The translations under genes and the position numbers were made by a program. DNA of 64,000 nt from a virus: positions 1-64,000 of IMG/VR virus record IMGVR_UViG_3300036832_000330, one strand, 5' to 3'. A model generated the notes under the pieces. That model saw only the letters and a program-made list of their open reading frames with translations. It searched no databases and had not been told where the DNA came from. Position 1 is the first letter of the stretch. Each line of letters opens with the position of its first letter. Below, piece by piece: positions 3,219 to 24,042 of the stretch.

Positions 3219-3519
3219 GTAGAACCAGTTCGTGATAACTGGGTTCTGGGAGTACGACCCACTCCCTTCCACCAAGCTCAAAGACGAGAACAGGGCGGCG
3301 AGACTCTGCCATGGCGTGACGGTAGAGACTGATGAGGTCGTCGTAGAGGAGGGTGATGGAGCGACGGTTATCGGTGCGCTTGAACTCGACAAGCTCGGTG
3401 CGGCTACGACCGTCGTTCTTACGGTCCCAACGCGCACCAGAACGCGGGTTCGTGACACCTCCAAACCGCTCCATTCCCTTCTTCTCTTGCCGCCTCCACA
3501 GGCGGGTTCGCGTCCTCAT
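2923..3519 (-). CDS. Hjc-like PD-(D/E)xK Holliday junction resolvase / endonuclease
   Basis: QEK..GG..NPRSGA.W.RKNDG....LVEFKRT..SITL...PVLVFEL; ATGA coupling to recA; long tail overlapping whiB. Confidence 0.7.
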   Translation of the reverse strand: MRTRTRLWRRQEKKGMERFGGVTNPRSGARWDRKNDGRSRTELVEFKRTDNRRSITLLYDDLISLYRHAMAESRRPVLVFELGGREWVVLPEPSYHELVLRGPPAGTAGHLRADPSPVARLRKVQRTARKPVLQRPPAQQHPGAGGPKRVPGNPPGPPRPLPRAGGLSGLRDRERRAVGRVGRNQRKGAASDQAPEAS

Positions 3520-4610
3520 TTCTTGGCTCTGACGAGCCGCCGACTGGAGGGGCGGGGACCAGGCTCCTCGCGGCGAATGCCCTTCACTACGTGGTTCTGG
3601 ATAGCCTCCTGCAACTTCTGCTGCAATGTCAAGTCCCATCTGGCCTGTTCCTCCAGGGCGGCGCGGCCATGCCAGGACTCGGTGTCCAGGTGGTAGTAGC
3701 TGCCCTTGATCGAGAACACCTCGTAAAGAACGCCCAGCGTGACCAACTCCTTGCCCAGGTCATACGATCCGGGTGAGATGCCGGCGCTGTTGTGGTCGAA
3801 GTAGAAGTCGAACACGGCCACCCGCTCGGGCGGGAAGCTCTTGTTCTTCTTGGTCAGGGCCTTGACGGTGATGCCCACCTTGCGCTGGTTCTTGCGGTCT
3901 CCCTCTGTCAGCCAGTCGTCGCGCTTCAACTCCAGCCGGCTGGTGAACCAGTAGTTCTTGGCTCGGCCCCCTGGGGTGGTGCGGGGATCACCGAACAGGA
4001 CGCCGATCTTCTCCCGCCACTGGTTGACGACGAAGCAGGTCACGGCCCGGTCGTCCTCCACCAGGGATCGCTTCATGGCGGTGTAGCTCTTCCTGAAGAA
4101 CTTGCCGATCAGGCGCGCCGCCAGGCCCACCTGGGTGTCGTCCATGGTGCCCTCGCCCTCACTTATCGGTGATAGGGCGGGCATGGAGTCGATGACCAGA
4201 ACATCGGCGGTTCTACTCTCCAGAACCATGATGGCGGCGTTGCACGCCTCCTCCAGGATGTTGGTCTGCATGACCAGGATCTTGTCGGTGTCGCAGCCCA
4301 GGTCACGCGCCCAGCCCGGTACGAACTCCTCAGCCGCCACCCAGAAGGTGACGTGGTCAGGGTTGAGGGCCTGCTGGACGGCGATGGTCTTCAGGATGAT
4401 GGTGGTCTTGCCTGAACTCTCGTCGCCGTATAGCTCGTGGAAGGCGTTGGTCTGCCAGCCGCCCCCCAGGGCCATGTCCAGGCTGTAGCTCCCGGTGGAG
4501 ATACGAGGCAGGTCGGAGTAGCGGATCTGGCTGCCCCAGACCACGGTCTCGGGACCGTACTCCTTGTTGATCTCGGCCATCACCGTGGTGATGGTGTCGG
4601 TCTTGGTCAT
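3516..4610 (-). CDS. recA: RecA/UvsX-like recombinase
   Basis: ISTGSYSLDMALGGG, Walker A GDESSGKTT, VIDS, NQWREKIGVLFGDPRTTPGG. Confidence 0.97.
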   Translation of the reverse strand: MTKTDTITTVMAEINKEYGPETVVWGSQIRYSDLPRISTGSYSLDMALGGGWQTNAFHELYGDESSGKTTIILKTIAVQQALNPDHVTFWVAAEEFVPGWARDLGCDTDKILVMQTNILEEACNAAIMVLESRTADVLVIDSMPALSPISEGEGTMDDTQVGLAARLIGKFFRKSYTAMKRSLVEDDRAVTCFVVNQWREKIGVLFGDPRTTPGGRAKNYWFTSRLELKRDDWLTEGDRKNQRKVGITVKALTKKNKSFPPERVAVFDFYFDHNSAGISPGSYDLGKELVTLGVLYEVFSIKGSYYHLDTESWHGRAALEEQARWDLTLQQKLQEAIQNHVVKGIRREEPGPRPSSRRLVRAKK

Positions 4611-4927
4611 CGTGGGCGATCCCTCCTGCCCTCTCTGCGCCGATCATGGAACAGGTCTTCCCAGGCACTCATCTCGTGCTCGCCGGCCTGGGGACTCCAA
4701 CGCATGGCGTCGGGGCCAAGCTCGGTGTCGACCGGATCATGTGGCTCCAGGCGACGCTCGGTCCAGGACCGGACTGCGTTTGAAGGCTCGTAGTGGGGTT
4801 CCTGCGCCTGAGTGCCTCGCTGCGCGGCCCAGGCCGCAGCCTGTTGGCGCGCTGCCCGTTCACCGTGAATCCGGTGGATAGGCACGCCCCGGCGCTGAGC
4901 TTCCTCCTGTAGACCTTCGCGGGCCAC
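4607..4927 (-). CDS. Hypothetical protein with C-terminal DLFHDRRREGRR motif
   Basis: ORF fills the gap and has an ATGA overlap with recA. Confidence 0.6.
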   Translation of the reverse strand: MAREGLQEEAQRRGVPIHRIHGERAARQQAAAWAAQRGTQAQEPHYEPSNAVRSWTERRLEPHDPVDTELGPDAMRWSPQAGEHEMSAWEDLFHDRRREGRRDRPR

Positions 4928-4929
4928 AA

Positions 4930-5055
4930 CTACTTCTTCTTGGCTGCGGTCTTCTTGGCCGGGGCCTTCTTAACCTCTTCCTTCTTCTCCTCGCCCTTCT
5001 TACCGAACGGCGCGGCCCGCTTGCCGCCGAATGGCTCCTTCTTAGTGGTTGCCAT
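4930..5055 (-). CDS. 41-aa Lys/Ala-rich histone-H1-tail-like protein
   Basis: Hand translation MATTKKEPFGGKRAAPFGKKGEEKKEEVKKAPAKKTAAKKK; GAGG RBS. Confidence 0.75.
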   Translation of the reverse strand: MATTKKEPFGGKRAAPFGKKGEEKKEEVKKAPAKKTAAKKK

Positions 5056-5446
5056 TGTGATTCCTCTCTTGGTGTTGTTCGTAGAAGGCGGTCAGTAGTT
5101 GTGTCGAGTGATGGAGCAGGCTGTTCGGCTCGATGGCTTCATACGAGGTACTGGGGTCTGTGTTCCTGACCCGATGGTTGAACTCGACGGTCAGGTCGTC
5201 GTAGTCACCGTCCTCCACCTTCCGTATGCCTTTCTTGGTGATCCAGTACACCTGGCCTGCCTTTCCCTTGGACATGAGCCGCTGATGCGGTCTCTTGGTC
5301 ACGGTGTTGAAGCGGACCTCAAGGAGACCCTTTCTTCGTAACTCGGGGATTCGCCTGTGAGCTTCCTCTCTATCAAGGCCAGATTTAACTGCGGCTTCCT
5401 CGTGGGTCATGCCTGGATCCCATGGCCTTGCGAGATACCGCCGCAT
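5042..5446 (-). CDS. Winged-helix DNA-binding protein
   Basis: GMTHEEAAVKSGL..EAHRRIPELRRKGLL...GQVYWIT; TGATG coupling. Confidence 0.7.
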   Translation of the reverse strand: MRRYLARPWDPGMTHEEAAVKSGLDREEAHRRIPELRRKGLLEVRFNTVTKRPHQRLMSKGKAGQVYWITKKGIRKVEDGDYDDLTVEFNHRVRNTDPSTSYEAIEPNSLLHHSTQLLTAFYEQHQERNHNGNH

Positions 5447-5595
5447 CACTTCCTCCGGTTTTTGAACTCTCTCATGTTGTGTGTGTCCTTGTCCTTGGGC
5501 TTGCCCTTGGCGATGGTGGACTCGGCCTTCTTCTTGGTTGCCTCGTTGCTCTTCTTGGCCGCGGCGGCTCTGGCATCGCCCTGTCGCCCAGGCAT
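5446..5595 (-). CDS. 49-aa basic hypothetical protein
   Basis: Hand translation MPGRQGDARAAAAKKSNEATKKKAESTIAKGKPKDKD...; TGATG overlaps at both ends. Confidence 0.65.
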   Translation of the reverse strand: MPGRQGDARAAAAKKSNEATKKKAESTIAKGKPKDKDTHNMREFKNRRK

Positions 5596-5846
5596 CACTT
5601 CCCTCGGTTTTCGGGCTTGTTGTAGCGGCTCCTGGTGGGCTTGGCTTCGCCGGTCTTGGGCATGGGCTTGCGCCCAGACTCACGGGTCTCAGCCGCCTTC
5701 TCGCCCATGGCGTGACGCCTGGCCTTGCCCTGGGCCTGGGCGTTGGAGATGGCAGCCGCTTTGCTCTTGGAAAAACCCTTCTCCTTCAGGGCCTCGTATG
5801 AGTCGGCTTTTTTGATGGATGGTCCGGGTTCTTTTCCTCCTGGCAT
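5595..5846 (-). CDS. Small basic protein (GPSIK..YEAL...SK.KAA.I.N family)
   Basis: PGPSIKKADSYEALKEKGFSKSKAAAISNA resembles small actinobacterial DNA-binding proteins; AGGAGG RBS. Confidence 0.75.
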   Translation of the reverse strand: MPGGKEPGPSIKKADSYEALKEKGFSKSKAAAISNAQAQGKARRHAMGEKAAETRESGRKPMPKTGEAKPTRSRYNKPENRGK

Positions 5847-5854
5847 GGTTCCTC

Positions 5855-6361
5855 CTATCTGACGTTGCTCCAACTGAAGTCGGTGCCACTGAGGCTGGCA
5901 TCTACACCGAACTGACTGGCCCCTGACGAGTTGTCGCTGCGGGCGAACTGGACCGGCCCGGATGACTTCATGCCGATGGAGTTGAGCAGGGTGCCTGACT
6001 GCTCAAACAGGTCACCGTTGTACCCGCAATCAACGCAGAGAGGAGCCGCCTCAAACTGGCCTGACTTGCGCCGGAAGAAGCTGGACCCATTGCAGCGGGG
6101 GCACCGTCCCGACGTGCCCAGGCTGTTGGGGGCCTTCTCCACGTATCCCTGGCGGTTGACCCGGTGCCAATTATCGTCGGTGTCGCTCCCCGGCTGGTCC
6201 CACTCCGTCACCTCCTGGCGGGGGCCAGTCGGGGGGTACTGGGGTTGCCACCGGACGGCCTTCTGGGGGTAGCCCGTGGTCTGGCTGGGAGGGGGCGGGG
6301 GCGCAGCCGGCCTCCGGGCGACGCCCCCCAGTGCCCGCTCCCACCACCCAACGTCGCTCAT
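5855..6361 (-). CDS. Hypothetical protein with Zn ribbon
   Basis: WW..ALG N-terminus, CPRC...CVDCGY. Confidence 0.75.
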   Translation of the reverse strand: MSDVGWWERALGGVARRPAAPPPPPSQTTGYPQKAVRWQPQYPPTGPRQEVTEWDQPGSDTDDNWHRVNRQGYVEKAPNSLGTSGRCPRCNGSSFFRRKSGQFEAAPLCVDCGYNGDLFEQSGTLLNSIGMKSSGPVQFARSDNSSGASQFGVDASLSGTDFSWSNVR

Positions 6362-6537
6362 TGCCTCATCTCACTTAGCTCGTCCAGTTCCTCGCGCCGA
6401 TCATGGAAGAGGTCCGGGGCGATCTTGTGGGCGCTGAAGCGGTAGCACTTGCACTCCAGGCGTCCGACCATGCCGGAACAGCCACGGGTGTTGTGCTGCT
6501 CCATGGGATGACCGCATTTGGTGCAGGTCTGGCTCAT
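6358..6537 (-). CDS. Small Cys/His protein with DLFHDRREE motif
   Basis: MSQTCTKCGHPMEQH..C...CKC..APDLFHDRREE; ATGA coupling to the polymerase gene. Confidence 0.65.
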   Translation of the reverse strand: MSQTCTKCGHPMEQHNTRGCSGMVGRLECKCYRFSAHKIAPDLFHDRREELDELSEMRQ

Positions 6538-8558
6538 TTGGCCTCGCTCCAGTTCTTTCCGACACCGATGTTGACCTCCAGGGGTACGTCCAGCACCGGG
6601 CGACCCTCCAGGCGGATGTTCTCCATGGCCTCCTTGATAAACGGTATGGCGTCGAGGGCCTCCCGCTCGTCGCACTCGATCACGAACTCATCGTGGATCT
6701 GAAGCACCAGGGCGGCGTGGAACTCCCGCAGGGCCTCATGGACCCTGACGATGGCGATCTTGGCGATGTCGGCGGCACTGCCCTGGATGGGGTGGTTGAC
6801 GGCCTGGCGCTCCGCATAGCTGCGGTCCTTGGGGTTGCCGGATGCGATGTCCTTGAGCCGGCGCTTGCGCCCGTACAGGGTCTCGACGTAACCGTTCTGC
6901 AAGCAGGACCGCTTGGTCTTGGCCCCCCACTGGCGCACGCCGGGGTACGCCTGGTGCCAGGCGGTGTAGACCTTCTCGGCCTCCCGCAGGGGGATGCCCG
7001 ACAGATCCACCACCCGGCCAGCGCGGCCCTCAAAGGCGAAGTTGAAGTTGCAGTTCTTGGCGATGGCCCGCTGCTCGACGGCGACCTTGTCCTGTGGCAC
7101 CTTGTAGATCAGGCTGGCTGTCTGGGTGTGCAGATCCAGGCCATGGGTGTAGGCGTAGAGGAGCAGCCGGTCCTTGGTCTGGTGGGCCAGGATGCGTAGC
7201 TCGATCTGGCTGTAGTCGGCCACGATCAGGACACGGCCCGGTGGTGCCACGAACAGCCGGCGGATCAGGGTGGCCTCGACGGTCTCCTTATACCTGGCCG
7301 GGATGTTCTGGAGGTTGGGGGCGCTGCACGAGAGGCGACCGGTGCGGGCCACGGCCTGGTTGAAGCTGGCCCGGATGCGGCTGTCCTCATCGATGTGGGG
7401 CATGAACCCGACGACGTAGGTGGACAGCAGCTTGTTCACGTCCTTGTACTCCAGGAGCCGGCGGGGTTCCTGGTGGCGCTTCGCCAGGGTCTTGAGAGCG
7501 TTGGCGGCGGTGGAACGCTGGCCGGTCTCGGTGATGAAGCCGCAGGGCAGGCGCAGTTCGTCGTAGAGCCAGCGACCCAGTTGCTGGGTGGAGTTCAGGT
7601 TGATCTCGTGGCCCACCATGGCCTGGATGTCGTCCCTGATCTCGTCGCGCTGGCGCTCCAGCTTGGGCCGTAGCTCCTGGAACCCCGCCATATCGACGTA
7701 GGCCCCCTGCTGGCGCATCTGGAGTAGTACCCGAAGCACAGCCATCTCCAGGCTGAACAGCGCGCCCAGCTTGGGCTTGTCCTCCAGGACGCCGTGGAGC
7801 TTCCACCACAGCATCCAGGCCATCTTGGCGTCGACAATCGAGTACCTCATGGCTCGCCGCCACTCCACCTTGTACGCCTCCTCACCGAGTTTCTCGGCGT
7901 AGGTGAACCCGATGTAGTGCTGAGCAAGAAAGCCCAGGTTGTACGCCTTGAGGTTCTCATTGATCAGAAAAATCATGGTCATCACGTCGGCATACGGAGG
8001 TGGTGGTATTTCGCCGTAGTACTTGGCAATCGAGAGCAGATCAAAGCCCACGTTCTGGTTGATCTTGCGCCGGTCGGAGAAGAACAGGGGCTTCAGGGCG
8101 GCGAACACCTCGCTGCGGTGTAGCTGTTGGCGTCGGTCAGGGTGTCCCATGGGTATGACATGGGACACTCCCGGACCAGCGAGGGAAAGACACCAGACTT
8201 CGTTGGTCCGGGCGTCCAGAGCCGGCTTATCCTTGTCAGCCGCCTTGCGGCACTCGTCGGAGCAGTAGGTGCGTCGTCGGGGTGGGATGGGCCGGCGACA
8301 GGACAGGCAGGGGGTGGACTGCTCGCTGTAGCGCGACAGCACCCGGCGCTCGCTCTGGAGCATGCGGACCTGCCGGCCCCCACGGGTCTCCACGTCGAAG
8401 GCGAACTCAGAAAAACCGGAGTAGATCGAGACCACGGCTTCTAGCTCGACCATGGTGCGAATGGTCTTGATGGGGCTGCCAGGGGTGGGGGAAGGGGACC
8501 GGTGGCGGGTCCGATCCCCTTCCCGTTCCGACACGGCAGCGGGTCTTACCGGCACCAC
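6534..8558 (-). CDS. polA: DNA polymerase I family A (3'-5' exonuclease + polymerase) with Zn-finger insert
   Basis: AFDVET (ExoI), RTGRLSCSAPNLQNIP, ADYSQIELRILAH (motif A), RAIAKNCNF (motif B), NHPIQGSAAD, QIHDE (motif C). Start uncertain (8558 or ATG 8453). Confidence 0.97.
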   Translation of the reverse strand: MVPVRPAAVSEREGDRTRHRSPSPTPGSPIKTIRTMVELEAVVSIYSGFSEFAFDVETRGGRQVRMLQSERRVLSRYSEQSTPCLSCRRPIPPRRRTYCSDECRKAADKDKPALDARTNEVWCLSLAGPGVSHVIPMGHPDRRQQLHRSEVFAALKPLFFSDRRKINQNVGFDLLSIAKYYGEIPPPPYADVMTMIFLINENLKAYNLGFLAQHYIGFTYAEKLGEEAYKVEWRRAMRYSIVDAKMAWMLWWKLHGVLEDKPKLGALFSLEMAVLRVLLQMRQQGAYVDMAGFQELRPKLERQRDEIRDDIQAMVGHEINLNSTQQLGRWLYDELRLPCGFITETGQRSTAANALKTLAKRHQEPRRLLEYKDVNKLLSTYVVGFMPHIDEDSRIRASFNQAVARTGRLSCSAPNLQNIPARYKETVEATLIRRLFVAPPGRVLIVADYSQIELRILAHQTKDRLLLYAYTHGLDLHTQTASLIYKVPQDKVAVEQRAIAKNCNFNFAFEGRAGRVVDLSGIPLREAEKVYTAWHQAYPGVRQWGAKTKRSCLQNGYVETLYGRKRRLKDIASGNPKDRSYAERQAVNHPIQGSAADIAKIAIVRVHEALREFHAALVLQIHDEFVIECDEREALDAIPFIKEAMENIRLEGRPVLDVPLEVNIGVGKNWSEAK
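8489..8524 (-). promoter_or_regulatory. Strong hairpin between the SSB and polymerase genes
   Basis: GGGAAGGGGA (8489-8498) and TCCCCTTCCC (8515-8524) form a 10-bp inverted repeat. Confidence 0.5.
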
Positions 8559-8569
8559 CGTTCGGACAC

Positions 8570-9289
8570 CTAGTCCGAGAAGGCGTCAGCTACTTTTTGT
8601 AGCTCAGCCTTGGAAGCAACGTCGAGGGATGTGTCGTCCCAGAGGCGGTCGTCAAACTTGGCGATCTCCTCTTCGGACAGTGGCTCAAAATTCCAGTCCT
8701 CTTTGAGGTCTCGGTTTTTGATGGGGCGAATCTGAGTGCGGCGGCTGTTCTTCGGCCCCCTCATGGCGACGGCAAAATACCGACCACTCAGAGGCTCATC
8801 CTGAGAATACTCCTCCAGGGCCTCAGTGACCGACACACCACATTCAAAGGTGGTCAGGATGGGTGTGTCGCCTCCGCAGTCCAGGATATTGAAGCGGACC
8901 CTGGCACCGGGCTTGGGGTCGACATCGTCCAGAGGGCAATCCTCCTGGAGGCACACGTAGCTGAGCCGGCTGCCCCTGGGCATCCACTCACACCAGTGCA
9001 TGAGGAAGCTGGCGTAGGGGCCATCCTCCAGGAACATGATCAGGGCCTCCTCGTCCTGAACCTTGTACAGCTTGGTGAACTGGGAGGGGGCGTTGGCCTT
9101 GGTGCGGCGGTAGCCACTCCAGCCCTTGGCTACGGCCAGGCCGCGGTCATCGTCGGCGTTATCACGGGCCGGGGCGCGCCGGGTCTTGGCCGGCTCGGGT
9201 GCTTCACGCCGCAGACGGCGGGGTTCGGCTGGGGCCTCGTCGTATTCCTCCGCTGGACGGGGGCGAACCAGTCTTCTTGTCGGTGCCAT
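8570..9289 (-). CDS. ssDNA-binding protein (gp32-like)
   Basis: AAGGAG RBS, MAPTRR...; FLEDGPYASF.MHW, SYVCL..DCPL, acidic C-terminus; adjacent to the polymerase. Confidence 0.7.
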   Translation of the reverse strand: MAPTRRLVRPRPAEEYDEAPAEPRRLRREAPEPAKTRRAPARDNADDDRGLAVAKGWSGYRRTKANAPSQFTKLYKVQDEEALIMFLEDGPYASFLMHWCEWMPRGSRLSYVCLQEDCPLDDVDPKPGARVRFNILDCGGDTPILTTFECGVSVTEALEEYSQDEPLSGRYFAVAMRGPKNSRRTQIRPIKNRDLKEDWNFEPLSEEEIAKFDDRLWDDTSLDVASKAELQKVADAFSD

Positions 9290-9602
9290 GTTGACTCCTT
9301 TGTTGTGTGGGTGCAGGGGACAGGGGTGCAGAGGACAGGAAGTCTTCAGCAAGGTTGGGGGAGATCTCGGACCACTGGTTGATCTGGTGCAGTTCCTCTC
9401 GGGCCAGCTTCTCCACTTCGGTGATGACCAGTAGCTCAAGCTGGTCGATCCAGGAGGGCCGAGTCTCCCGGAGTGCGGCCCAGTCCTCGTCGGACCAGCC
9501 CAGGTCATGGTGGTCAGCCTCAGCCCCCACCTCCACATGGACGGTCTCGTAGTCCCGGACCCGCACGAGGTAGCGGATGTTCTTGGTGAGCTTCACCGCC
9601 AT
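9204..9602 (-). CDS. Hypothetical protein
   Basis: MAVKLTKNIRYLVRVRDYETVHVEVGAE...; GGAGG RBS. Confidence 0.65.
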   Translation of the reverse strand: MAVKLTKNIRYLVRVRDYETVHVEVGAEADHHDLGWSDEDWAALRETRPSWIDQLELLVITEVEKLAREELHQINQWSEISPNLAEDFLSSAPLSPAPTQQRSQHGTDKKTGSPPSSGGIRRGPSRTPPSAA

Positions 9603-10054
9603 GACCTCCAGGCCGCGACCACACGGGCCGTGAAGTTGGTCTCCACCAGGCGAGGCGGCTTCTCCTGGAGCAGGCCCTCCTCCTGGGCGATGGCGACGAT
9701 GCCCTCGATCTGGGCGCGGGTCCACAGCTTGAGGCCGGCGTCGCCCCTGGTGCCATAGCGAGGGCTGGTCTGGTACATGTTGCGGGGCAGCCAGCCCTTG
9801 CGTATCCAGGCCCGCATGGTGACGCTGTCACGCCCCAGGGCCTTGGCGAGCGCGCCGACGCGGAACATCTCGTAGCGGACCCCCTTGATGAAGACCTCCA
9901 GGGGGTGGGCGTCCCAGGGTTCGTCCTCACGGGCCACCCGGCGCTCCTCCACCCGTCGTTCGTGACGCATCTCCTGGGACTCCCGCCGCTTGCGCTTGGA
10001 GCCGGGGTAGTACTCGTCCTGGAGGGTGTCGAACACCCTCATCAGGTCGCTCAT
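9593..10054 (-). CDS. MerR-like HTH DNA-binding protein
   Basis: FRVGALAKALGRDSVTMRAWIRKGWLP...LWTRAQIE. Confidence 0.85.
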   Translation of the reverse strand: MSDLMRVFDTLQDEYYPGSKRKRRESQEMRHERRVEERRVAREDEPWDAHPLEVFIKGVRYEMFRVGALAKALGRDSVTMRAWIRKGWLPRNMYQTSPRYGTRGDAGLKLWTRAQIEGIVAIAQEEGLLQEKPPRLVETNFTARVVAAWRSWR

Positions 10055-10524
10055 GCCCGCACCGGCTTCTCATCCTCATCCAGGAGGAAGAACCGGTAGG
10101 AGGTGACGGCAGGGAACATGCGGGCCAACTCGTCGTCGGAGATGCGGTTGTCGTAGTAGGCAGCCCGGATGCGCTCCTCGTTGGGCACCCGGACGGGGTC
10201 GCTCAACTCCTCCCAGATGTCCTTGCCGCGGAGGATCTCCTCCGCTACCTCGTCGTTGATCTGGTTCTTGGAGACCACGCACAGGTTCTTCAGGTACCGG
10301 ATGTTCTGATCCCCAATCGGCTCCTCCAGATCTAAATAAATAGAGCCGTCAGTGGGATCCTTGTCGCCGTATTTTGCCAGGAGTTCCTTGAACCGGTCTG
10401 TACCCTTCTTTAGTTTGGGGGTGAGCAGGGCGTCCTGGCGCTTGAGGGCGTACCACTCGCGCACCTCCTGACGCAGGGCTTTCAGATCCAATCTCTCCTT
10501 GACGGCGGCTCGCTTCGTAGGCAT
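10051..10524 (-). CDS. Hypothetical phage protein
   Basis: 157-aa ORF with a leaderless-type start (TACCCT upstream). Confidence 0.75.
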   Translation of the reverse strand: MPTKRAAVKERLDLKALRQEVREWYALKRQDALLTPKLKKGTDRFKELLAKYGDKDPTDGSIYLDLEEPIGDQNIRYLKNLCVVSKNQINDEVAEEILRGKDIWEELSDPVRVPNEERIRAAYYDNRISDDELARMFPAVTSYRFFLLDEDEKPVRA

Positions 10525-10554
10525 GTCAGTAAGGGTAACTGGGGGGTGTGACCG

Positions 10555-10911
10555 TTAAGAGGGCGCTCGGGGATCACCTCCCCTGTCATGGGCGTTGCCG
10601 ACGACGTACCAGGGGCGTCCGTTCTCGTCGGCCACGGCCAGCAGCCGCTCTGTGGCGCGGTTGTGGCTCATACGATCCATGAAGGCGATCACGATGTTGG
10701 GGTCACGCCATTCGTAGACCCGGCGGTGTCGGAGGTACTTGAACTGCTCCACCTCAAACTGGAGGTCGACCAGGCTGCCGTCGTCCTGGATGATGATGGT
10801 CTCGCCCCAGTGACGGGCCTGGGTGTTCAGCCCCTCCAGGATCACTCGCAGGAGCAGGGTGTCGCTGGTCAGCCGGCTGCCACAAAGCAGGTACTGGGGG
10901 CCGTCCTTCAA
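10555..10911 (-). CDS. Degenerate SLOG/YspA-like protein
   Basis: LLCGSR...IIIQD...PNIVIAF....RAT..LL..A...GRP pattern, but the GGAxGAD loop is missing. Confidence 0.5.
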   Translation of the reverse strand: MKDGPQYLLCGSRLTSDTLLLRVILEGLNTQARHWGETIIIQDDGSLVDLQFEVEQFKYLRHRRVYEWRDPNIVIAFMDRMSHNRATERLLAVADENGRPWYVVGNAHDRGGDPRAPS

Positions 10912-11564
10912 GAACGACCTGAAGTCGCTCGTCGTACCCTTCTGCCGTTACCGTTGTTGTTACGACGGGGTGTGGGTGGGGGAGGAGGCGAGGGACGATG
11001 TCGATTACCCACCCGGACAAGTCTTATGAGCCTTGGACCCTCAGTCTTGGGTTGGTTGCCAACTAGTCTCACGAATGCATGCCCTTGATCGGTCGCAAGT
11101 TTCGCTAGTGCTAGGTACGCATCGCAGCGCACCTTTACGGCGTCGTACGCCTTGTGGGCCTCACCTTTTTGGAATCGATCCGCTGTTCGGAAGTCTTCCG
11201 GTGTTACTACGTCGTACCGTACCTTCTCGTACTTGCTGATCGAGATGGGAAGACGTTTGACTTCATCCCAATCGAGTTCGACCTCACCAGACCCCCACCC
11301 ATAAAAGATCTTGTTTCCAAGTTTATTTTCCTGGCCTTCGATCTGATTGACATCCCGTTCGACCTGCTTGGTTATCGCTGACGTGTCGTTCGGATAGTTC
11401 TGTCGCCCAACGGCGATGGCACGGTTTTTCCAGTCTTTGTCAGTGGTTTTGTAGCGGTCAGGCCGATCCGCACGCAAAGCCGCCCGGATGCGGCTGCGAT
11501 AGGTGTCATCCAGTTCATCGTAGGTTACGACGGTGACAGGCTCGTCTGAGGGTCTTCTGGGCAT
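10908..11564 (-). CDS. Hypothetical protein (partner of the ParB-like gene)
   Basis: 218-aa ORF, visibly more A/T at third codon positions than the flanks; GGAGG RBS. Confidence 0.75.
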   Translation of the reverse strand: MPRRPSDEPVTVVTYDELDDTYRSRIRAALRADRPDRYKTTDKDWKNRAIAVGRQNYPNDTSAITKQVERDVNQIEGQENKLGNKIFYGWGSGEVELDWDEVKRLPISISKYEKVRYDVVTPEDFRTADRFQKGEAHKAYDAVKVRCDAYLALAKLATDQGHAFVRLVGNQPKTEGPRLIRLVRVGNRHRPSPPPPPTPRRNNNGNGRRVRRATSGRS

Positions 11565-11567
11565 TTT

Positions 11568-12473: not shown

Positions 12474-12538
12474 CTATATAGCAGCAGGGTAGTTGGTCAC
12501 GTCCTGGGCTAGGGGATTACCTCCCGGACCCCCTGGTC

Positions 12539-16241: not shown

Positions 16242-16690
16242 TAGCTCACCGTGAGGGGGGTGTCGGGGCCGATGAAGTAGCCCTGTGGGCCGAAGGAGAA
16301 GCGGTGTTCCTCCAGGCCGTAGTAGACGCGGTGGATGTCGGGGGAGTGGGCCAGGGACCGGCCCAGCCGCTGCGCGGTGTCCGCGAAGACGTACCTGACC
16401 GGCCAGTTATCCCGCTCGCTCCTGCGCGCCACGGCCCTGGCGAAGCGGGGGGCGCGGGCGGTGACGCAGATGTCGATGATGTAGTCGGTGCGGATCAGGA
16501 GGGACCACATCAGGCCCAGGGTCCGGTCCTGGATCTGCCATAGGTTCATGGCCTGGTCGAAGAGGCCCATGCGCCGCTTGAAGGACTCCAGGGTGTGTAC
16601 CACGGGGTAATCCGGGAGGGTGGCGATGGCACCCTCCCAGATGAAGATGACTCGTGGCCGGATGTCGGTACCTATCTCTCCCCGACGCAC
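16241..16690 (-). CDS. Hypothetical protein (HAD-like fold possible)
   Basis: 149-aa ORF inside the replication operon; MRRGEI..D..PRVIFIWEG. Confidence 0.7.
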   Translation of the reverse strand: MRRGEIGTDIRPRVIFIWEGAIATLPDYPVVHTLESFKRRMGLFDQAMNLWQIQDRTLGLMWSLLIRTDYIIDICVTARAPRFARAVARRSERDNWPVRYVFADTAQRLGRSLAHSPDIHRVYYGLEEHRFSFGPQGYFIGPDTPLTVS

Positions 16691-17283
16691 CGATAGTCCT
16701 CACCCTCCATCGCTACCAGGACCGTGCCCTCACGCAAGAAGCTGGACAGCCCTGGGGTGTACTGCTCATCCAGTTCTGGGAACGACAAGTTGGTGGTGAC
16801 GATGGTGACCATGTTGCGGTTATGGCGGTAGCGCAGCAAGTTGAACACCTGATGGTTCGACCAACCTGATCGTGACTCGGTCTCCCGCCCCAGATCGTCC
16901 AGGAGCAGGAACTGGGACTGCCTCTCGATGTACCGGAGCCGTTCGTCAAGTTTGTCCAGCTTGAAGGCCCGCTCTCCATCTTCGTCAGAGTTAAGGCGGG
17001 CGCTGAGACTGAACTTCTCCATATAGATGTCGATGTAGCTGCTGAGTTCGATGCACTCAATGCGGTAGCCGGCGTCGTTCGCGGCAGTTAGCACAGCACA
17101 GGCAAGGTGGGTCTTACCCACTCCATTCGGACCTGCGAAGGTGATGCCCTTGCCCTGATCCTTCATCACCTTCAGGACGGTGAGATAGTCCCTGGTGACC
17201 TCGACAGCCCTCTCTAGGTCGCCGTTGATGGTCTCAAAGTCATCGAGGCCCTTCTCCTGGTAGTACGGGAATACTTGTTTCAC
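16672..17283 (-). CDS. dnaC: DnaC/IstB-like AAA+ helicase loader
   Basis: GPNGVGKTHLA, LLLDDLGRE, TIVTTNL, GEDYR. Confidence 0.9.
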   Translation of the reverse strand: MKQVFPYYQEKGLDDFETINGDLERAVEVTRDYLTVLKVMKDQGKGITFAGPNGVGKTHLACAVLTAANDAGYRIECIELSSYIDIYMEKFSLSARLNSDEDGERAFKLDKLDERLRYIERQSQFLLLDDLGRETESRSGWSNHQVFNLLRYRHNRNMVTIVTTNLSFPELDEQYTPGLSSFLREGTVLVAMEGEDYRCVGER

Positions 17284-17810
17284 AGTTCCTCTCCTTGGAA
17301 GTTACGGTTGCAGTTACGGCAGTGGTAGCGTTGGCGATCCGGTTGCCCGCGGTGGGTCTGGCGTCCGTTGCGGGACACATAGTCCTGCTGGTCACAGAGG
17401 GGGCAGGGCGGCATGTCGGTTTTAGCCAGTGAGCGTTTGCGCTCGCCGGCCAGGTACCTCTCCCGGAGGGTCTTCGCGGCCAGGCGCGCCTTCCAGTGCC
17501 GGCGGTTCCACTCCTGCCGCCAGTCGTAGTAGGTCTCCTTGCCCTGATAGATCCGCCGCCGCACGTCCTGGGTCAGGCCGGCGAAGGTGCCGTACTCCAG
17601 GTTCTCGTAGTTCGCCAAGGCCCACCGGGTGCAGTCCCGGAACACCGGGCAGCGCACACAGATGGACTGGCACGTCGCCAGGGCCTCGATGCCCTCATCG
17701 AAGTAGACCTCGTTGACCCGGCCCGTGGCGGTCATACAGGCCCTCCGGGGGTCGGTGCTGAAGTCTGGGTCCAGGACGCCCCGGACCCAGAGAGGGGTAC
17801 GCCGGGTCAT
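17280..17810 (-). CDS. whiB: WhiB-like protein fused to an InsA-type Zn ribbon
   Basis: AC...YF...ICVRCPVFRDC..WAL...YGTFAGLT...RR; C-terminal CPLC...VSRNG...QRYHCRNCNRNF. Confidence 0.75.
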   Translation of the reverse strand: MTRRTPLWVRGVLDPDFSTDPRRACMTATGRVNEVYFDEGIEALATCQSICVRCPVFRDCTRWALANYENLEYGTFAGLTQDVRRRIYQGKETYYDWRQEWNRRHWKARLAAKTLRERYLAGERKRSLAKTDMPPCPLCDQQDYVSRNGRQTHRGQPDRQRYHCRNCNRNFQGEEL

Positions 17811-18577
17811 GTGGCGTAGTTAACACGGGGGGTGTGACGAGCAGTCTGGGCGAACCAATCCTTGCTCCGGGTGTTCTGCTTTGCTCGCTGGACAACCAGA
17901 CCGGAAAGATCCTCCCGCCGGCTCACGAAGACTCGCCAGGGGGGTCTGGTGGAATGCCGACACCATTCCGGGTGTCGAACAAACTCCTCCATCATCAGCT
18001 TCATGAAGGAGAGGTCGACGCCCTGGAGCTTCCACCGGTTCAGGTGATGGGCCAGGGCAGGACCGTTGGTCTGGAGAGGAACCATCTGGATCCCGGCTTC
18101 CCGCACTACACCGGGGAAAAAATACTTCGCCAGATAGGTCGTTGTTGCCACTGGTTTTTGGGCAGACTCCGACTTAACCCCGTTAAAGACACCAGAACCT
18201 CCAACACCCTCACCAACCGACAACGAGTGCTTAGAGCGGTCGCTCATCCCATCGCTTCGCGATAGAATAAGCTCCCACCGCGGGGCGGGGGACGAACTTT
18301 GGGGATTACCTCCCGACCCCTCGCACAGGCAGAAGATCAGCACGCGGTACCGGTAGCTCTCCCCGATGGTGACCCTCTCGACGTAGCCGGCGTCTTCCAG
18401 GTGGTCGAATGTCCCCATATCCGCACCGGGTACCGCTCGCTCCACCCGATACTCCAGCCTGTTCTCGCTGAGCAGGAGCAAGTCCTGCCGTCCAGTGTGT
18501 CTCCCGGCCCAGGTCAGGAGCCTATGCTCCGGGCTGCTACCCAGTTCTAGGCATGGTGGAACCACACCTCTGTCCAT
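17807..18577 (-). CDS. Putative replication initiator / hypothetical protein
   Basis: GGAGGAGG RBS; first gene of the leftward operon, upstream of the loader and helicase. Function is inferred from position. Confidence 0.55.
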   Translation of the reverse strand: MDRGVVPPCLELGSSPEHRLLTWAGRHTGRQDLLLLSENRLEYRVERAVPGADMGTFDHLEDAGYVERVTIGESYRYRVLIFCLCEGSGGNPQSSSPAPRWELILSRSDGMSDRSKHSLSVGEGVGGSGVFNGVKSESAQKPVATTTYLAKYFFPGVVREAGIQMVPLQTNGPALAHHLNRWKLQGVDLSFMKLMMEEFVRHPEWCRHSTRPPWRVFVSRREDLSGLVVQRAKQNTRSKDWFAQTARHTPRVNYAT

Positions 18578-18899
18578 GCTGCCTCCTCCCGGCGAAGCCC
18601 TGTGACCAGGGCTTTCCTATGTCCAGCCCGCCGGCTCTCTCGGAGTCGGACAGGTAACCGCATACATTGCCCCCGGCTGAGCCGGATGTCAAGTGCGAAT
18701 GAGGGAGGTCTTGATCAATGCGAATGATGTAAATCACCGCTTGCTGGGGCTTGCCTTCTACAGGCGTCTACAGCGCCGCCTACAGGCGCGTTAATCATTA
18801 GGTCAGTCCCACCCGCCGGGAAAAAACCTAGCCCTTTCTGCCCGCCCTCGCAAGGGCCGCTTTTTCCACAGGTTGTCCCCTTCCTAGGCTGGAGGGGGC
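18578..18899. promoter_or_regulatory. Divergent control region (possible origin / promoters)
   Basis: Largest gap, between the divergent arms. Contains CTACAG x3, an AT-rich patch, TTTTCCACA (DnaA-box consensus, 18862-18870) and TAGGCT just before the terminase ATG. Confidence 0.55.
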
Positions 18900-20546
18900 A
18901 TGACCTACGTAGACGATCCTAGCCTCGCTGACCAGGACGAAGATGACCGCGCCGACGACAGCGAGGGTCTCTCCGATGACCTGGAGCAATACGCCCCGCC
19001 GGTCTTAGACCCGGCCCAGCAGGGCTTTGTGGATCACCTTGTGGATAAGGTGTGGAGCTTTACGGTGATCTTCTCCGGGGTGGAGATGTTCCCCTACCAG
19101 GCAGCCCTGGGCCGGCGCATCATTGAGAGCGTCATCAGCGGAGATGGGGCCACCATCACGGGGGAACTCAGCCGTCAGAGCGGAAAGACAGAGGTGGTGG
19201 CGAACGTCGCCAGCAGTCTCATGATTCTGCTACCGCGGTTAGCGGAGATGTTCCCAGAGTTTGAGCCGTTGCAGAAGTTCCGCACGGGGTTGATGGTGGG
19301 ATGCTTCGCCCCGGTTGAGCAGCAGGTCGAGACCCTCTTCGGTCGGATCGTGGATCGCCTGACCTCTGAGCGTGCCCTGGAGATGCTGGAAGACCCGGAG
19401 ATCGATGATCAGGTCAAGCCTGGCTCTCGGAAGGTGCGCCTGAAAAAATGCCAGTCGTTTTGCGCCATGCAGACCGCCAACCCTCGCGCCAAGATCGAGT
19501 CCAAGTCTTACCATGTGATTTTTGTGGACGAGTCCCAGTCGGTGGACGAGTACGTTCTCAATAAGAGCATCACGCCTATGGGGGCATTTTACCTGGCGAC
19601 TATGGTCATGACCGGCACCCCAGACATCGTGAAGGGCGTGTTTTATAAGACAATCCAGCACAACCGTCGCCAGGAGCTACGCCGGGGCGGGAAGAAGAAC
19701 CACTTCCGCTTCGACTGGCACTACTGCGCCCGATTTAATAAAAACTATGCCGCCTACATCCGGGGCGAGGCCATGCGGATCGGGGAGGACAGCGATGAGT
19801 TCCGGCTCAACTACCGGCTGGAGTGGCTTCTGGAGCGGGGCATGCTCATCACTGAGACTCGTATGGACGAGCTTGGTGACCCCACCATGCCCATCGTCCA
19901 GGCGTACTGGAGATCGCCCCTGGTGGCGGGCATCGACTTCGCCAGACGCATGGACTCCACCGTGGTCACCATCGTCTGGGTGGACTGGGACCGTCCTGAT
20001 GAACTGGGCCTCTACGACCACCGGATCCTGAACTGGCTGGAGATGCACGGGGAGGAGTGGGAAGACCAGTACTTCAGGATCGTGGACTTCCTCTCCAACT
20101 ACTCGGTGGTGGCGTGCGGTGTCGACGCTCAAGGAGTTGGTGACGTAGCTGCTGACCGGCTGAAGCGACTGTTGCCGCGTATCCAGGTGGAACCACTGTC
20201 GTCACAGATCGCGGATCAGTCAGCCAGGTGGAAGCACCTTCAGCAGCTACTGCAACGAGGTTTGATGTCCTGGCCGGCGCATCCCAGGGCCAAGCGGACC
20301 AAGAACTGGCGGCGTTTTCGCCAGCAGATGGTGGATGTGGAGAAGAGCTACAAGGGTGCCCACCTCGTGGTGGCTGCGCCGAACGAGGCCGGCGTGCATG
20401 ACGACTACGTCGACTCACTGGCCTGCGCCACCATCATGTCCCAGGTGATGATGGTGCCTGAGGTTGAGATGCAGGCGACGCCCTGGGCGTCGTCGGTTCG
20501 GCGGTCGAGGGCTGCTCGTCCTCGCCAGCGGCGTCGGACAGCATAG
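18900..20546 (+). CDS. terL: Terminase large subunit
   Basis: FPYQ, SRQSGKTE (Walker A), VDESQ (Walker B), MTGTP, AGIDFAR..DSTV, HDDYVDSLA. Confidence 0.95.
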   Translation: MTYVDDPSLADQDEDDRADDSEGLSDDLEQYAPPVLDPAQQGFVDHLVDKVWSFTVIFSGVEMFPYQAALGRRIIESVISGDGATITGELSRQSGKTEVVANVASSLMILLPRLAEMFPEFEPLQKFRTGLMVGCFAPVEQQVETLFGRIVDRLTSERALEMLEDPEIDDQVKPGSRKVRLKKCQSFCAMQTANPRAKIESKSYHVIFVDESQSVDEYVLNKSITPMGAFYLATMVMTGTPDIVKGVFYKTIQHNRRQELRRGGKKNHFRFDWHYCARFNKNYAAYIRGEAMRIGEDSDEFRLNYRLEWLLERGMLITETRMDELGDPTMPIVQAYWRSPLVAGIDFARRMDSTVVTIVWVDWDRPDELGLYDHRILNWLEMHGEEWEDQYFRIVDFLSNYSVVACGVDAQGVGDVAADRLKRLLPRIQVEPLSSQIADQSARWKHLQQLLQRGLMSWPAHPRAKRTKNWRRFRQQMVDVEKSYKGAHLVVAAPNEAGVHDDYVDSLACATIMSQVMMVPEVEMQATPWASSVRRSRAARPRQRRRTA

Positions 20547-20627
20547 AGGCAGCGTTGCTGCCGGTGGCCCGCTGCATCGAGGTGCGGTGCGCCCACTGGT
20601 CTGAGATCGACACGTTCCTAGGGTACT

Positions 20628-20664
20628 GGGTGGTCAGGGGGCGCGCTGGCACCGGACCTAGCCT
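20628..20664 (+). promoter_or_regulatory. Putative late promoter
   Basis: GGGTGGTCAGGGG...CACCGGACCTAGCCT; near-identical copy at 36388-36424. Confidence 0.55.
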
Positions 20665-20696
20665 CATATACACAGCCCTCGACAGGAGGAGAAGAC

Positions 20697-21098
20697 ATGT
20701 CTCTTGGCCCTGTGCCGATGTTCCCGGAGCGGGGACGGTACCAGTACGACCAGACCGTGGCGAACAACGCGCCCGGTGGACGGGGACCGCTCCGCTTTGA
20801 AGAGGGCCTGGGCACCGACACCGACATCCCCAACGACTTCCAGCGGGGGATGATCGAGTTCATGGTGTCGGCTCCTGGCCGCATCAACCATGTCGACCCC
20901 AACGTCCAGTTCAAGATGCCTGAGGAGACCCTGGCTGAGCGGTCCCACGTCGGCTCTGCGGCCTGGATCGACGCTCCGACGATGCTCGGGGAGTTCGCTC
21001 GGGGAAGCTTCACGGATTCTGCGGAAGTGACCTACGAGGAGGTGCAACGCTCGGGCGGCATCCAGAAGCGGCGTGCCCCTGAGGTTGTCATCGACTGA
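20697..21098 (+). CDS. Conserved virion-region hypothetical protein
   Basis: AGGAGGA RBS; RGPLRFEEG.GTDTD.PNDF..G...ERSHVGSAAW. Confidence 0.8.
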   Translation: MSLGPVPMFPERGRYQYDQTVANNAPGGRGPLRFEEGLGTDTDIPNDFQRGMIEFMVSAPGRINHVDPNVQFKMPEETLAERSHVGSAAWIDAPTMLGEFARGSFTDSAEVTYEEVQRSGGIQKRRAPEVVID

Positions 21099-21099
21099 G

Positions 21100-21312
21100 A
21101 TGGCCTCGATAGGTGGTGGCCGGGAGTTAGACGAGCATCGGAAGGTCCGCATCCTCGCCATGGCGGTGCAGCACCACGGTGCTGATCCCTCGACGGTGAA
21201 GCAGATGCTGGACGATCCGAACTTTGGCATGGACCCCAGTGTCAGCGACAGGGTCCATGCCCATGCCATGGCGATGGCTGCGAACACCAGGGGCGGTCGA
21301 CATGAGCGGTGA
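21100..21312 (+). CDS. Hypothetical protein
   Basis: MASIGGGRELDEHRKV...; fits the gene packing. Confidence 0.55.
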   Translation: MASIGGGRELDEHRKVRILAMAVQHHGADPSTVKQMLDDPNFGMDPSVSDRVHAHAMAMAANTRGGRHER

Positions 21313-21502
21313 ACCTGGCAGCTTTCGCCACAGTCTCAAGTGGGGCCTTCTCGGACTTGTTGGGAGGGCAGGAAGACCTCCTGCTGAACCTGGCTTCCTC
21401 CATGACGTTGGTCAGGGCATCAATGCGCTTCGCCACCCTGAGTACTTCCATGACCGGCGGGAAGAGGGCCGGCGAGAGGGACCAGCGAATGCCGCGCCGT
21501 GA
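21302..21502 (+). CDS. Small protein with YFHDRREEGRR motif
   Basis: MSGEPGSFRH...; shared motif supports this frame. Confidence 0.6.
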   Translation: MSGEPGSFRHSLKWGLLGLVGRAGRPPAEPGFLHDVGQGINALRHPEYFHDRREEGRREGPANAAP

Positions 21503-22991
21503 CCCACCTCCACCGAAGGCCATCCCGGCAGCCACCCCGGAGATAGCGGAGCAGCAACAGCAAGGGCGCGCCGAATCCATCAAAGGCCCGCTGCGCTCCA
21601 ATAATCCCAGGGGTCGTAAGACCATCCGGGCCAGGTCTCAACACCCCACCCAGACCACGCCTCGCCCCCAGAGTGACTGGGAGAAGGAGCATTACGGGGG
21701 CGATCCCACCAGTGGCAGCGATCTGGAGCGGATGCGGGCCGGCGGTGGGCTGGCTACCGGTCGTCCCTCGCCCCGGATCCCCAAGCGCGTCAACGTGGCG
21801 AACGCGGTGCTGGTGGAGCGTGGTCTGGCTGACCCCGGTGACGTGGATCCGAACCAGGGCCGGCTGTTCGGTCACGCCGAGATGGGCAAGTTGACCAAGA
21901 CCGACAAGGAGATGGCTGAGCAGACCGGGGTGCCCTACCGTCGCCCCGCCGGCCAGGGCTGGATGACCGGGGTGGGCCGCACCAAGAGAGCGCCCTACGA
22001 CACCGCCGCGGAGGCACGGGCGGCTGGTGACACCAAGGCCGAAGCTGCTATCCATGCGCGCAAGGCTGAGGTAGGCCAGCAGGCCAAAGAGAAGGTGCGG
22101 GAGCCAGACACGGGGGAGCCGTCCCAGACCCCGGTTAGAACGGCCATGAGCAACCGTGCCCGGTACGAGTCTGATCGCCCCACTACTTGGTATGCCGGCG
22201 AGGCCACTCAGGCGGTCGAGCGGGAGGCCCTCAAGAGCGGCCTGGGTGGGCACCCCCAGGGGTTCAACATCATGCGGCGGGCCACGGCGCTACTCAGCCC
22301 CCAGAAGCCCTGGGACATGGGCCACCACCAGGACGACAACTACACCCAGCCGAACGTCGAGGTGGCTGGGCATCTGGTGCGGTTCCTCCGGGGTGAGCAG
22401 GCGCGACTGGGGGAGGAGTACGACCCGGACAAGGCAGCCAAAGAGTTCCGTATGCCAGGTGTGGGACACACAGAGGAGACCCCGAACTTGGTGCAGGGAC
22501 AGAGCTTGCCCATGAGGAAGGCGGTAGCTCGTCACCTGGACAAGCCCACCCACGAGGAGCCGAAGTTGGCGACTGAGGTGCAGAAGGTCCGTAACTTCGA
22601 CCCGGCCCTGGCGGCAGGGCATCGTGTTCGTTGGGCACGCCGTCAGGCGTTGCAGCGGTACACGTCGGACACCCATGACATCCGGGCTGCTGGCATCACC
22701 GGGCTGTACCAGAGCTTCGTCGGTTCTAACGCTCCTGGGGGCTACGAGTTCGCCGCCATGACCGGGCGACGTGGTGCCATGCGCCAGTCGGTACGGGCGC
22801 TCAAGGAGGGCCGTGATCCTCGCACCTCCTCCGAGTACCAGGAGAACGTCTGGGTGGGCAAGCGCGGCCCTAACCAGCCCAGGGTCCACAAGGGGCCGGG
22901 TGGCACAGGCCGACAGGTGCTGTTTGAGCAGAACAAGAAGACCGGCCAGGAGAAGCCGGCCCGGAGGGCATTACCGCCGAAGAAGAAGTGA
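21489..22991 (+). CDS. Large virion-region protein with a possible HhH/glycosylase-like domain
   Basis: Basic, disordered N-terminal half; C-terminal half WY...ALLSPQKPW...N...KVRNF...TSDTHD...YE...YQENVW, a pattern recalled from uncharacterised phage proteins. Confidence 0.6.
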   Translation: MPRRDPPPPKAIPAATPEIAEQQQQGRAESIKGPLRSNNPRGRKTIRARSQHPTQTTPRPQSDWEKEHYGGDPTSGSDLERMRAGGGLATGRPSPRIPKRVNVANAVLVERGLADPGDVDPNQGRLFGHAEMGKLTKTDKEMAEQTGVPYRRPAGQGWMTGVGRTKRAPYDTAAEARAAGDTKAEAAIHARKAEVGQQAKEKVREPDTGEPSQTPVRTAMSNRARYESDRPTTWYAGEATQAVEREALKSGLGGHPQGFNIMRRATALLSPQKPWDMGHHQDDNYTQPNVEVAGHLVRFLRGEQARLGEEYDPDKAAKEFRMPGVGHTEETPNLVQGQSLPMRKAVARHLDKPTHEEPKLATEVQKVRNFDPALAAGHRVRWARRQALQRYTSDTHDIRAAGITGLYQSFVGSNAPGGYEFAAMTGRRGAMRQSVRALKEGRDPRTSSEYQENVWVGKRGPNQPRVHKGPGGTGRQVLFEQNKKTGQEKPARRALPPKKK

Positions 22992-23095
22992 GGTGGAGCA
23001 AGCCATGCCGGCTCTAGACCGGAAGCTCAAGGCATCATGACCGACTCCACCGCCGCCAGTGTACAGGGTGAACACAAGCATGTGGGAGCGCGTTG

Positions 23096-23305
23096 ATGGC
23101 TGAGATAAGTCCTCTGAGAACCAAGGGTGTGCCAGTCGAGTACATGGATCTCAACACCCTGTGGAACGACCGGCGTGACCCCCACGCCAACCCCTTGTCG
23201 TCCTCGCCCCGGCGTGAGTCGGCTCGTCCTGGACCCAGTGCCCTGGGTGGCCTGGTACACCAGATCTACCGTGGGACACCCTCCCACACGGTGGGCGATG
23301 AGTGA
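23096..23305 (+). CDS. Small hypothetical protein (LWNDRR variant motif)
   Basis: MAEISPLRTK...MDLNTLWNDRRDP. Confidence 0.5.
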   Translation: MAEISPLRTKGVPVEYMDLNTLWNDRRDPHANPLSSSPRRESARPGPSALGGLVHQIYRGTPSHTVGDE

Positions 23306-23513
23306 CCTGCCCGTCCTCCTGGCGACAGCCCCGCCCGTCATCCTGTCTCAGTCGATCCTGAGCCAGCGGGTGAAGCCGCGCCATGCCGCCATCGCTGCCC
23401 AGTCCGAGACCAAGCAACTCCAGAAGCAGGCAGCGCGCCGGCAGCTACAGCAGGCAGAGCGCCGCCGGCTGCCCCTGACCCAGCAGGACTTCTATCAGAG
23501 GCTGGCCCGGTGA
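23298..23513 (+). CDS. Small hypothetical protein
   Basis: MSDLPVLLATAPP...; overlaps at both ends. Confidence 0.55.
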   Translation: MSDLPVLLATAPPVILSQSILSQRVKPRHAAIAAQSETKQLQKQAARRQLQQAERRRLPLTQQDFYQRLAR

Positions 23514-23800
23514 ATGGTAACGGCGACGGCGATGGCAACGGGCACGGCAACCCTCGTCCTGACCTCTTCCATGACCGACGTGGTGAGGGCAAGCGCACCG
23601 CTCCCTACGCCTTGACGCCTATGGCGAAGCCCTCTATTGCCAAGGTCGTATACGGCGGTGACATGGGCGTCTTCCACAAGACCATCTTGTCTGCGCCTGG
23701 TGGGCGTAAGAGTTATGAGTCCTTGTTCCCGAAGTTCAGCGCAAAGGAGCATGGCCCCGGTACTTCCTTCGGCACTCACGTCCCTATCAGGTACTCATGA
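23510..23800 (+). CDS. Small protein with DLFHDRRGEGKRTAP motif
   Basis: GTGA/ATGA coupling; motif shared with the next gene. Confidence 0.7.
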   Translation: MNGNGDGDGNGHGNPRPDLFHDRRGEGKRTAPYALTPMAKPSIAKVVYGGDMGVFHKTILSAPGGRKSYESLFPKFSAKEHGPGTSFGTHVPIRYS

Positions 23801-24042
23801 ACATCACCGGTGACGGTCTCTTCCATGACCGACGTGAAGAAGGACGCCGAACCGCGCCTTCGCACTTCTCCTACCCGCATGGAGGTGAGATGGGTGATCG
23901 TGAGGGGCAGATAGATCCATACCTCAGGAAGAACATCTACGCGCTCAAGGCGATGCCCCAACAGAGTGGATTGCCCAAGTTCAATCCTTCCGCTTCGCAG
24001 AAAGGAACGCCTCCTGAGGGTTACGCACCCTCGTACTCCTGA
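23797..24042 (+). CDS. Small protein with GLFHDRREEGRRTAP motif
   Basis: Translationally coupled to the portal gene (TGATG). Confidence 0.7.
   Translation: MNITGDGLFHDRREEGRRTAPSHFSYPHGGEMGDREGQIDPYLRKNIYALKAMPQQSGLPKFNPSASQKGTPPEGYAPSYS

Follow-up and report, generated by a model that had tools for sequence, protein, structure and literature searches.

A short arginine-rich peptide shared by unrelated small proteins of an uncultured phage lineage: a probable docking tag

Introduction

The capsid-targeting sequence (CTS) of bacteriophage T4 is found exclusively at the N-terminus, targets proteins to the scaffolding core, and is cut off by the prohead protease. Encapsulin cargo-loading peptides are short and uncleaved, lie in a flexible region usually at the C-terminus and sometimes at the N-terminus, and dock varied cargo onto the inside of an HK97-fold shell; the cargo genes are usually found directly beside the shell gene. 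The diverse internal proteins of T4 have only the CTS in common (PMC3012670). Here, we describe a tag of 14-20 residues, built around the peptide FHDRR, that is shared by unrelated small proteins (carriers) encoded in the virus record IMGVR_UViG_3300036832_000330 (93,647 bp, estimated to be 80% complete). The window is the whole stretch analyzed, the first 64 kb of this record (64,000 nt). The first half of the tag reads hydrophobic-aromatic-[H/N]-D-R-R and its basic second half E-G-R-R-x-x-P; the invariant residues are D-R-R-x-E-G-R-R-x-x-P, including four invariant Arg. No description of the motif was found in the searched literature, which gave irrelevant matches only, as the original prediction (a reading of the sequence alone) had supposed; address or docking tags common to diverse small proteins of a phage are, as a kind, already known.

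The tag resembles the T4 CTS (IPI-III, Alt) in being a short portable peptide and the sole feature common to diverse, fast-evolving small proteins. It differs in sequence, which is unrelated by inspection, and in placement: among 38 carrier clusters, it was N-terminal in 20 (within the first ~35 residues), C-terminal in 14, and internal in 4. In addition, no prohead protease was detected (Peptidase_S78, S77, and ClpP all lacked a match in the 93.6-kb record, which is estimated to be ~80% complete; the S77 control gave no signal), and packaging of the carriers is conjectural. The T4 analogy originally proposed was thus sound in its logic, one tag on diverse and fast-evolving small proteins, but not in its details, the T4 tag being N-terminal only and cleaved. 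Encapsulin cargo-loading peptides share with the present tag a terminal position, at either end, on disordered carriers. Their consensus, however, is hydrophobic and Gly/Ser-rich, whereas the tag is Arg-rich (D, R, R, E, G, R, R, P), and the adjacency of cargo and shell genes is a further difference, binding of the tag to a capsid protein being conjectural here. β-Clamp-binding motifs and the tails of single-stranded DNA-binding protein likewise consist of short linear motifs at the free ends of proteins that are unrelated but have one partner in common, but neither the Q-L-x-L-F-type nor the acidic (D-D-D-I-P-F-type) consensus was present in the tag, which has no conserved Gln, and the carriers are encoded mostly in the head module, not with the replisome. 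The D-L preceding the aromatic residue was dispensable in many copies. Resemblances to clamp-binding motifs, twin-arginine translocation (Tat) signals, and leaders of ribosomally synthesized and post-translationally modified peptides were dropped because the consensus did not match.

Results

The motif and its carriers in the window

Six-frame translation of the whole record yielded five occurrences of the pattern FHDRR, at 4651(-), 6408(-), 21446(+), 23567(+), and 23821(+), and no others. By chance, residue frequencies predict 0.04 occurrences, and 60 second-order Markov genomes gave 0.1 (maximum 1). The core TTCCATGA was present in 6 copies (1.8 expected), a number reached in none of 100 shuffles. 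All FHDRR copies sat in open frames in the direction of local transcription, and none was found in noncoding DNA or in other frames, where equal frequency would have pointed to a DNA site. A codon-usage log-odds scan preferred the motif frame at 4 of the 5 sites, with 21446 being ambiguous. The six open reading frames (ORFs) and peptides named in the original prediction were all recovered in place, as follows.

4607..4927, minus strand: carrier A, 106 aa; C-terminal tag at 4610-4651; stop overlaps the RecA start (ATGA)
6358..6537, minus strand: carrier B, 59 aa, Cys-rich and zinc-ribbon-like; half-tag at ~6388-6417, near the C-terminus
21302..21502, plus strand: carrier C, 66 aa; C-terminal tag at 21446-21487; overlaps the ATG (21489) of a 500-aa protein
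23096..23305, plus strand: F family protein, 69 aa; related block around WNDRR at 23156-23194
23510..23800, plus strand: carrier D, 96 aa; N-terminal tag block at ~23549-23608
23797..24042, plus strand: carrier E, 81 aa; N-terminal tag at 23818-23862; stop overlaps the portal start

Two of these proteins differ from the assignment first given to them. Carrier B bears the motif, but only the first half of the tag; the same first half without the second was found at the C-terminus of its homologue in the complete relative G002 (locus L049), in a different gene neighborhood. The sequence WNDRR, originally counted as a variant of the motif (LWNDRR), is present at 23162, but the protein belongs to a separate family, F, which is kept in all relatives where the region was recovered, and its link to the tag is only suggestive: judged by sequence resemblance, W-N-D-R-R is possibly the first half of the tag alone. 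The first half alone, or a degenerate tag, was also seen at the N-terminus of some large cassette proteins. A further peptide that looks like the first half, L-F-F-S-D-R-R at window position 8081(-), lies within the DNA polymerase and is probably a chance occurrence.

The motif was kept in homologues of the carriers. Carrier A is missing upstream of RecA in the relative G004 and is therefore an accessory insertion; its homologues P0029 and P0039 retain the tag. The ORF of carrier C was missed by a simple gene finder and its support is comparative: it resembles an L004 protein beyond the tag, and the same arrangement was seen again in relatives. The 81-aa form of carrier E is on record as P0015. 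A word-index homologue search for carrier D returned 3 proteins only. None of the carriers could be assigned to a credible family in Pfam or PHROGs, and a profile search of the PDB gave no match for the tag.

Selection on the peptide

Related loci (44) were gathered from IMG/VR through the portal, the portals being 80-91% identical in most. Codon conservation was analyzed in 38 distinct DNA copies of the tag from the window, the related loci, and four contigs added by an IMG/VR-wide scan with the back-translated motif (~30 related soil-virus contigs). Codon positions 1 and 2 of the residues D, R, R, E, G, R, R, and P carried 1.2-2.0 bits, mostly 2.0, whereas the third positions of Arg, Gly, and Pro codons carried 0.1-0.4 bits, so that conservation of the tag DNA showed a three-base period. 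One tag Arg was encoded by CGN in 28 copies and by AGG in 10, and relatives had Asn, Pro, Ser, or Trp in place of the tag His. Because the first two positions are fixed, the third positions are near-random, and Arg codons switch between CGN and AGG, selection acts on the peptide and not on the DNA, in agreement with the protein-level selection first proposed from synonymous variation.

The original prediction had also remarked that FH is always written TTC CAT. This held within the present genome but not beyond it, the codons at these positions in relatives including TTT, CAC, AAC, AAT, and CCT. The fixed spelling was explained by genome-wide avoidance of CACGAC, which occurred in 2 copies in the window (47 ± 7 expected), so that His-Asp is encoded as CAT GAC: with the tag copies excluded, His-Asp pairs in genes were written CAT GAC 23 times and CAC GAC once. 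Relatives that do not avoid CACGAC write the tag with CAC GAC. The hexamer is asymmetric (CACGAC/GTCGTG), and its window copies on both strands were confined to 502-507 and 53827-53832; its avoidance probably reflects the target of a host restriction system (Type IIS/III-like).

A portable module

When carriers were compared by BLASTP with each other and with the ORFs of related loci, matches were confined to 15-30 residues of the motif, true orthologues excepted. A profile built from 37 motif windows (A1) and searched against 1.84 billion representative proteins (E ≤ 0.001) retrieved the 38 carrier clusters, all 53-176 aa long, and no cellular protein among these representatives bore the motif. 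The tag was found on several unrelated domain families, and one domain was tagged at its N-terminus in P0032 and at its C-terminus in P0039, which is direct evidence of a portable module. The heterogeneity of the clusters and the restriction of similarity to the tag thus uphold the view that the peptide is transferable and sits at either terminus of unrelated small proteins. In 13 of the 14 C-terminal clusters, the protein stopped exactly one residue past the conserved Pro. In the orthologous family of carrier D (alignment A2), the tag block was the sole invariant run, at an overall identity of 47-54%.

The median hydrophobic fraction of the carriers was 0.185, compared with 0.28 for the proteins of the genome. 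AlphaFold2 modeled carrier D as all coil, from a shallow alignment (predicted local distance difference test score 53). In the F protein, a low-confidence helix was modeled over residues 19-27, spanning the WNDRR block; F appears mostly disordered, with two short conserved helices, and the ESM Atlas gave nothing useful for it.

Two readings of the tag as part of a translation start were rejected. N-terminal copies as leaders of a gene starting at a downstream in-frame ATG were not conserved in relatives, and an ATG inside the tag, as the start of the next gene, was in frame in copy C only and not in copy A or in relatives. The residues before D-R-R tended to match within a genome: they were FH throughout four multicopy genomes, FN in both copies of one genome, and HH in both copies of another, and two genomes were mixed. 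This agreement hints at co-adaptation to a genome-specific receptor; it is confounded by the FH majority and by shared ancestry and was not used as evidence.

Genomic location

The genes that border the carriers in the window are the following.

3516-4610, leftward arm: RecA (Pfam)
6534-8534, leftward arm: family A DNA polymerase (Pfam)
18900..20546, plus strand: large terminase (Pfam)
20697..21098, plus strand: conserved 133-aa gene after the terminase; left border of the first hot spot
21489..22991, plus strand: 500-aa variable cassette protein, flanked by the first hot spot and F
23298..23513, plus strand: conserved 71-aa gene after F (g37); left border of the second hot spot
24042..25796, plus strand: portal, SPP1 type (Pfam); right border of the second hot spot
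27514-28524, rightward arm: capsid protein (Pfam)

Four of the six originally named carriers lie between the terminase and the portal, as first reported, and the same concentration was observed well beyond the window. The IMG/VR-wide scan, which was unbiased and covered 2.9 million viral contigs, found 17 stretches with 23 mapped copies, all on soil-metagenome contigs of this lineage. Twenty-two of the 23 copies (96%) were located between the 133-aa gene and the portal, 11 on each side of F. The first hot spot, just upstream of the large cassette protein, contained mainly carriers with a C-terminal tag. The second contained carriers with an N-terminal tag, the stops of which typically abut or overlap the portal start. 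The remaining copy, in locus L067, was found among the ParB-like, HAD-like, and other enzyme-like genes of an operon that resembles the domains of polyvalent (injected) proteins. In that operon (reverse strand, ~4230-8910), two N-terminal tags were observed side by side, a ..QF-type and FHDRR directly after the initiator Met.

The position of the large cassette gene (window and L003-L046) was occupied by at least four unrelated families of 264-598 aa in different genomes, a non-homologous replacement; DUF7178 was one of these families in relatives. Neither cultured phages nor the relatives contained a homologue of the 500-aa protein of the window. The 133-aa gene was 73-88% identical in 30 close relatives and ~47% identical in two distant contigs. 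Streptomyces phages (BRock, Alone3, and others) have portals 61% identical and keep the 133-aa gene (~48% identical), but F, g37, and the tag were all absent from these phages. The tag thus occurred only in the clade that also has F and g37. These two genes (~70 aa each; window 23096-23513) are clade-specific and co-occur in all relatives where the region was recovered; they may encode head-completion or portal-associated proteins.

Discussion

Selection at the level of the peptide, terminal and position-independent placement, disordered carriers, restriction to one lineage, and concentration in the head operon together lead us to infer a short linear motif through which the carriers dock to one common partner. 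We consider this likely, in a sense that covers a partner in head assembly as well as some other hub. According to the proposed mechanism, the tag, at the free N-terminus or C-terminus of small and mostly disordered accessory proteins, would bind that partner. The likeliest candidate would be a conserved head-assembly component (scaffold, portal, or inner shell surface) because almost all carriers are encoded in the head-assembly operon, at two hypervariable hot spots. The tag would then recruit small proteins, in a rapidly changing assortment, into the prohead, and the carriers would be found in the virion. It would stay uncleaved, in the manner of encapsulin cargo-loading peptides and not of the T4 tag, a choice favored because a prohead protease was not detected by the S78, S77, and ClpP searches of the ~80% complete record (with no signal from the S77 control). 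As a whole, this more specific reading, an uncleaved label that recruits variable small proteins into the prohead through a head-assembly partner, is in our judgment quite possible, if short of probable. The likeness of the L067 operon to polyvalent proteins may, by analogy, be counted in its favor.

Several observations weigh against recruitment into the head. Five relatives (L003, L007, L020, L037, and L039) have a complete terminase-portal interval with no carrier in it, and the tag system is therefore dispensable. Carrier A is encoded upstream of RecA and carrier B downstream of the family A DNA polymerase, both in the leftward replication arm. The charge of the carriers is not uniformly basic, unlike that of T4 internal proteins, and the AlphaFold2 runs rest on shallow alignments. 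In addition, the second shared N-terminal tag seen in L067, which is found on enzyme-like proteins, could be the real capsid-loading signal.

A still more particular version of head loading is tentative, and we rate it as somewhat doubtful. It takes the tag as a protease-free cargo-loading peptide working at either terminus, a phage counterpart of encapsulin tags. Such a peptide would let the lineage exchange the hypervariable small and disordered proteins, and now and then a large cassette protein, that enter the head and are delivered along with the DNA. The universally conserved WNDRR protein would, on this view, represent the ancestral client of the tag's receptor.

Should the tag serve for loading or docking, an uncultured phage lineage that is probably actinobacterial would possess a compact address label (14-20 residues) that works independently of position. 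The label would also single out the small orphan proteins that form one functional set, probably cargo for host takeover or anti-defence. Labels of this kind would be handles to find injected proteins in metagenomic phages and to package foreign proteins. Whatever the partner, ~40 orphan protein clusters become one testable class.

The main rival, which we regard as a lesser but real possibility, places the docking partner outside the virion, with the tag aiming or timing many small accessory proteins. Host candidates are RNA polymerase, the ribosome, and a protease or unfoldase, for which the tag would be a degron; phage candidates are the HExxH peptidases and an ADP-ribosyltransferase-like protein, for which it would be a recognition or modification site. 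The carriers beside RecA and the DNA polymerase, and the one in an effector-like operon, speak for it. Consistent with it are also the four invariant Arg, placement at either terminus (typical of degrons and hub-binding tails), the paralogous HExxH peptidases at 25793-26671 and 68178-69455, and the very existence of a second shared N-terminal tag. The encoding of 96% of the copies in the head-assembly operon argues against it, and the lack of the motif in any cellular protein among the 1.84 billion representatives speaks against mimicry of a widespread host motif. The peptidase at 25793-26671 is, moreover, absent at that position in most relatives. With respect to this gene, the paralogous metallopeptidase-like genes share the sequence H-E-L-G-H; the window copy is inserted between the portal and the scaffold, which is at 26681-27481, and the other (G000 68178-69455) lies outside the window.

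It is unlikely that the tag is a relic of cassette movement, an end segment kept partly for translational-coupling signals in which the peptide itself has little function. The strict ending of 13 of the 14 C-terminal copies, the overlap of their stop with the next start in the loci examined, and the frequent spelling of C-terminal R-R-D-R-P codons as purine-rich GGGA/AGG strings 10-14 nt before the next start would all fit such an origin, as would the hypervariable insertion hot spots that the carriers occupy. Coupling signals would not, however, leave residues invariant while third positions are randomized, including those of the first half, which is far from any start. N-terminal and mid-protein copies have no nearby downstream start, the same domain is tagged at either end, and the tag is the best-conserved block in orthologues.

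Slightly less credit is given to the reading in which the peptide is itself active, as an arginine-rich nucleic-acid-binding or regulatory element that the variable parts merely modulate. Four invariant Arg within an invariant acidic-basic pattern, on carriers that are otherwise disordered and poorly conserved, could be read in this way. The net charge of the tag is only ~+2, though, some carriers possess domains that are clearly conserved in their own right, and no similar peptide was found among solved structures.

Translational arrest by the nascent chain, controlling the downstream gene, appears very improbable. Arrest peptides of the SecM/RAPP-type families have an R-A-P-P or R-A-G-P core, which is absent from the tag sequences. 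C-terminal copies do finish with Arg-x-x-Pro-x-stop directly before the next start, but in 20 of the 38 clusters the tag is N-terminal and 40-70 residues are still untranslated. Least credible of all is a nucleic-acid element (a promoter or a packaging or recombination site, in DNA or RNA) merely readable as peptide: the core is invariably TTCCATGA in this genome and all copies run with transcription, but the codon-position analysis (three-base period, CGN/AGG switches, His replaced by Asn, Pro, or Ser), the absence of copies from noncoding DNA and other frames, and a CAT preference accounted for by genome-wide CACGAC avoidance effectively refute it.

A feature of the far end of the carriers was also observed. 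Those with an N-terminal tag often ended in Pro-x-x-aromatic-Ser/Asn before the next start (window 23780-23800 and 24022-24042; L013, L023, and L028 upstream of the portal). This tail could be a second short motif, or it could result from constraint at the conserved portal junction.

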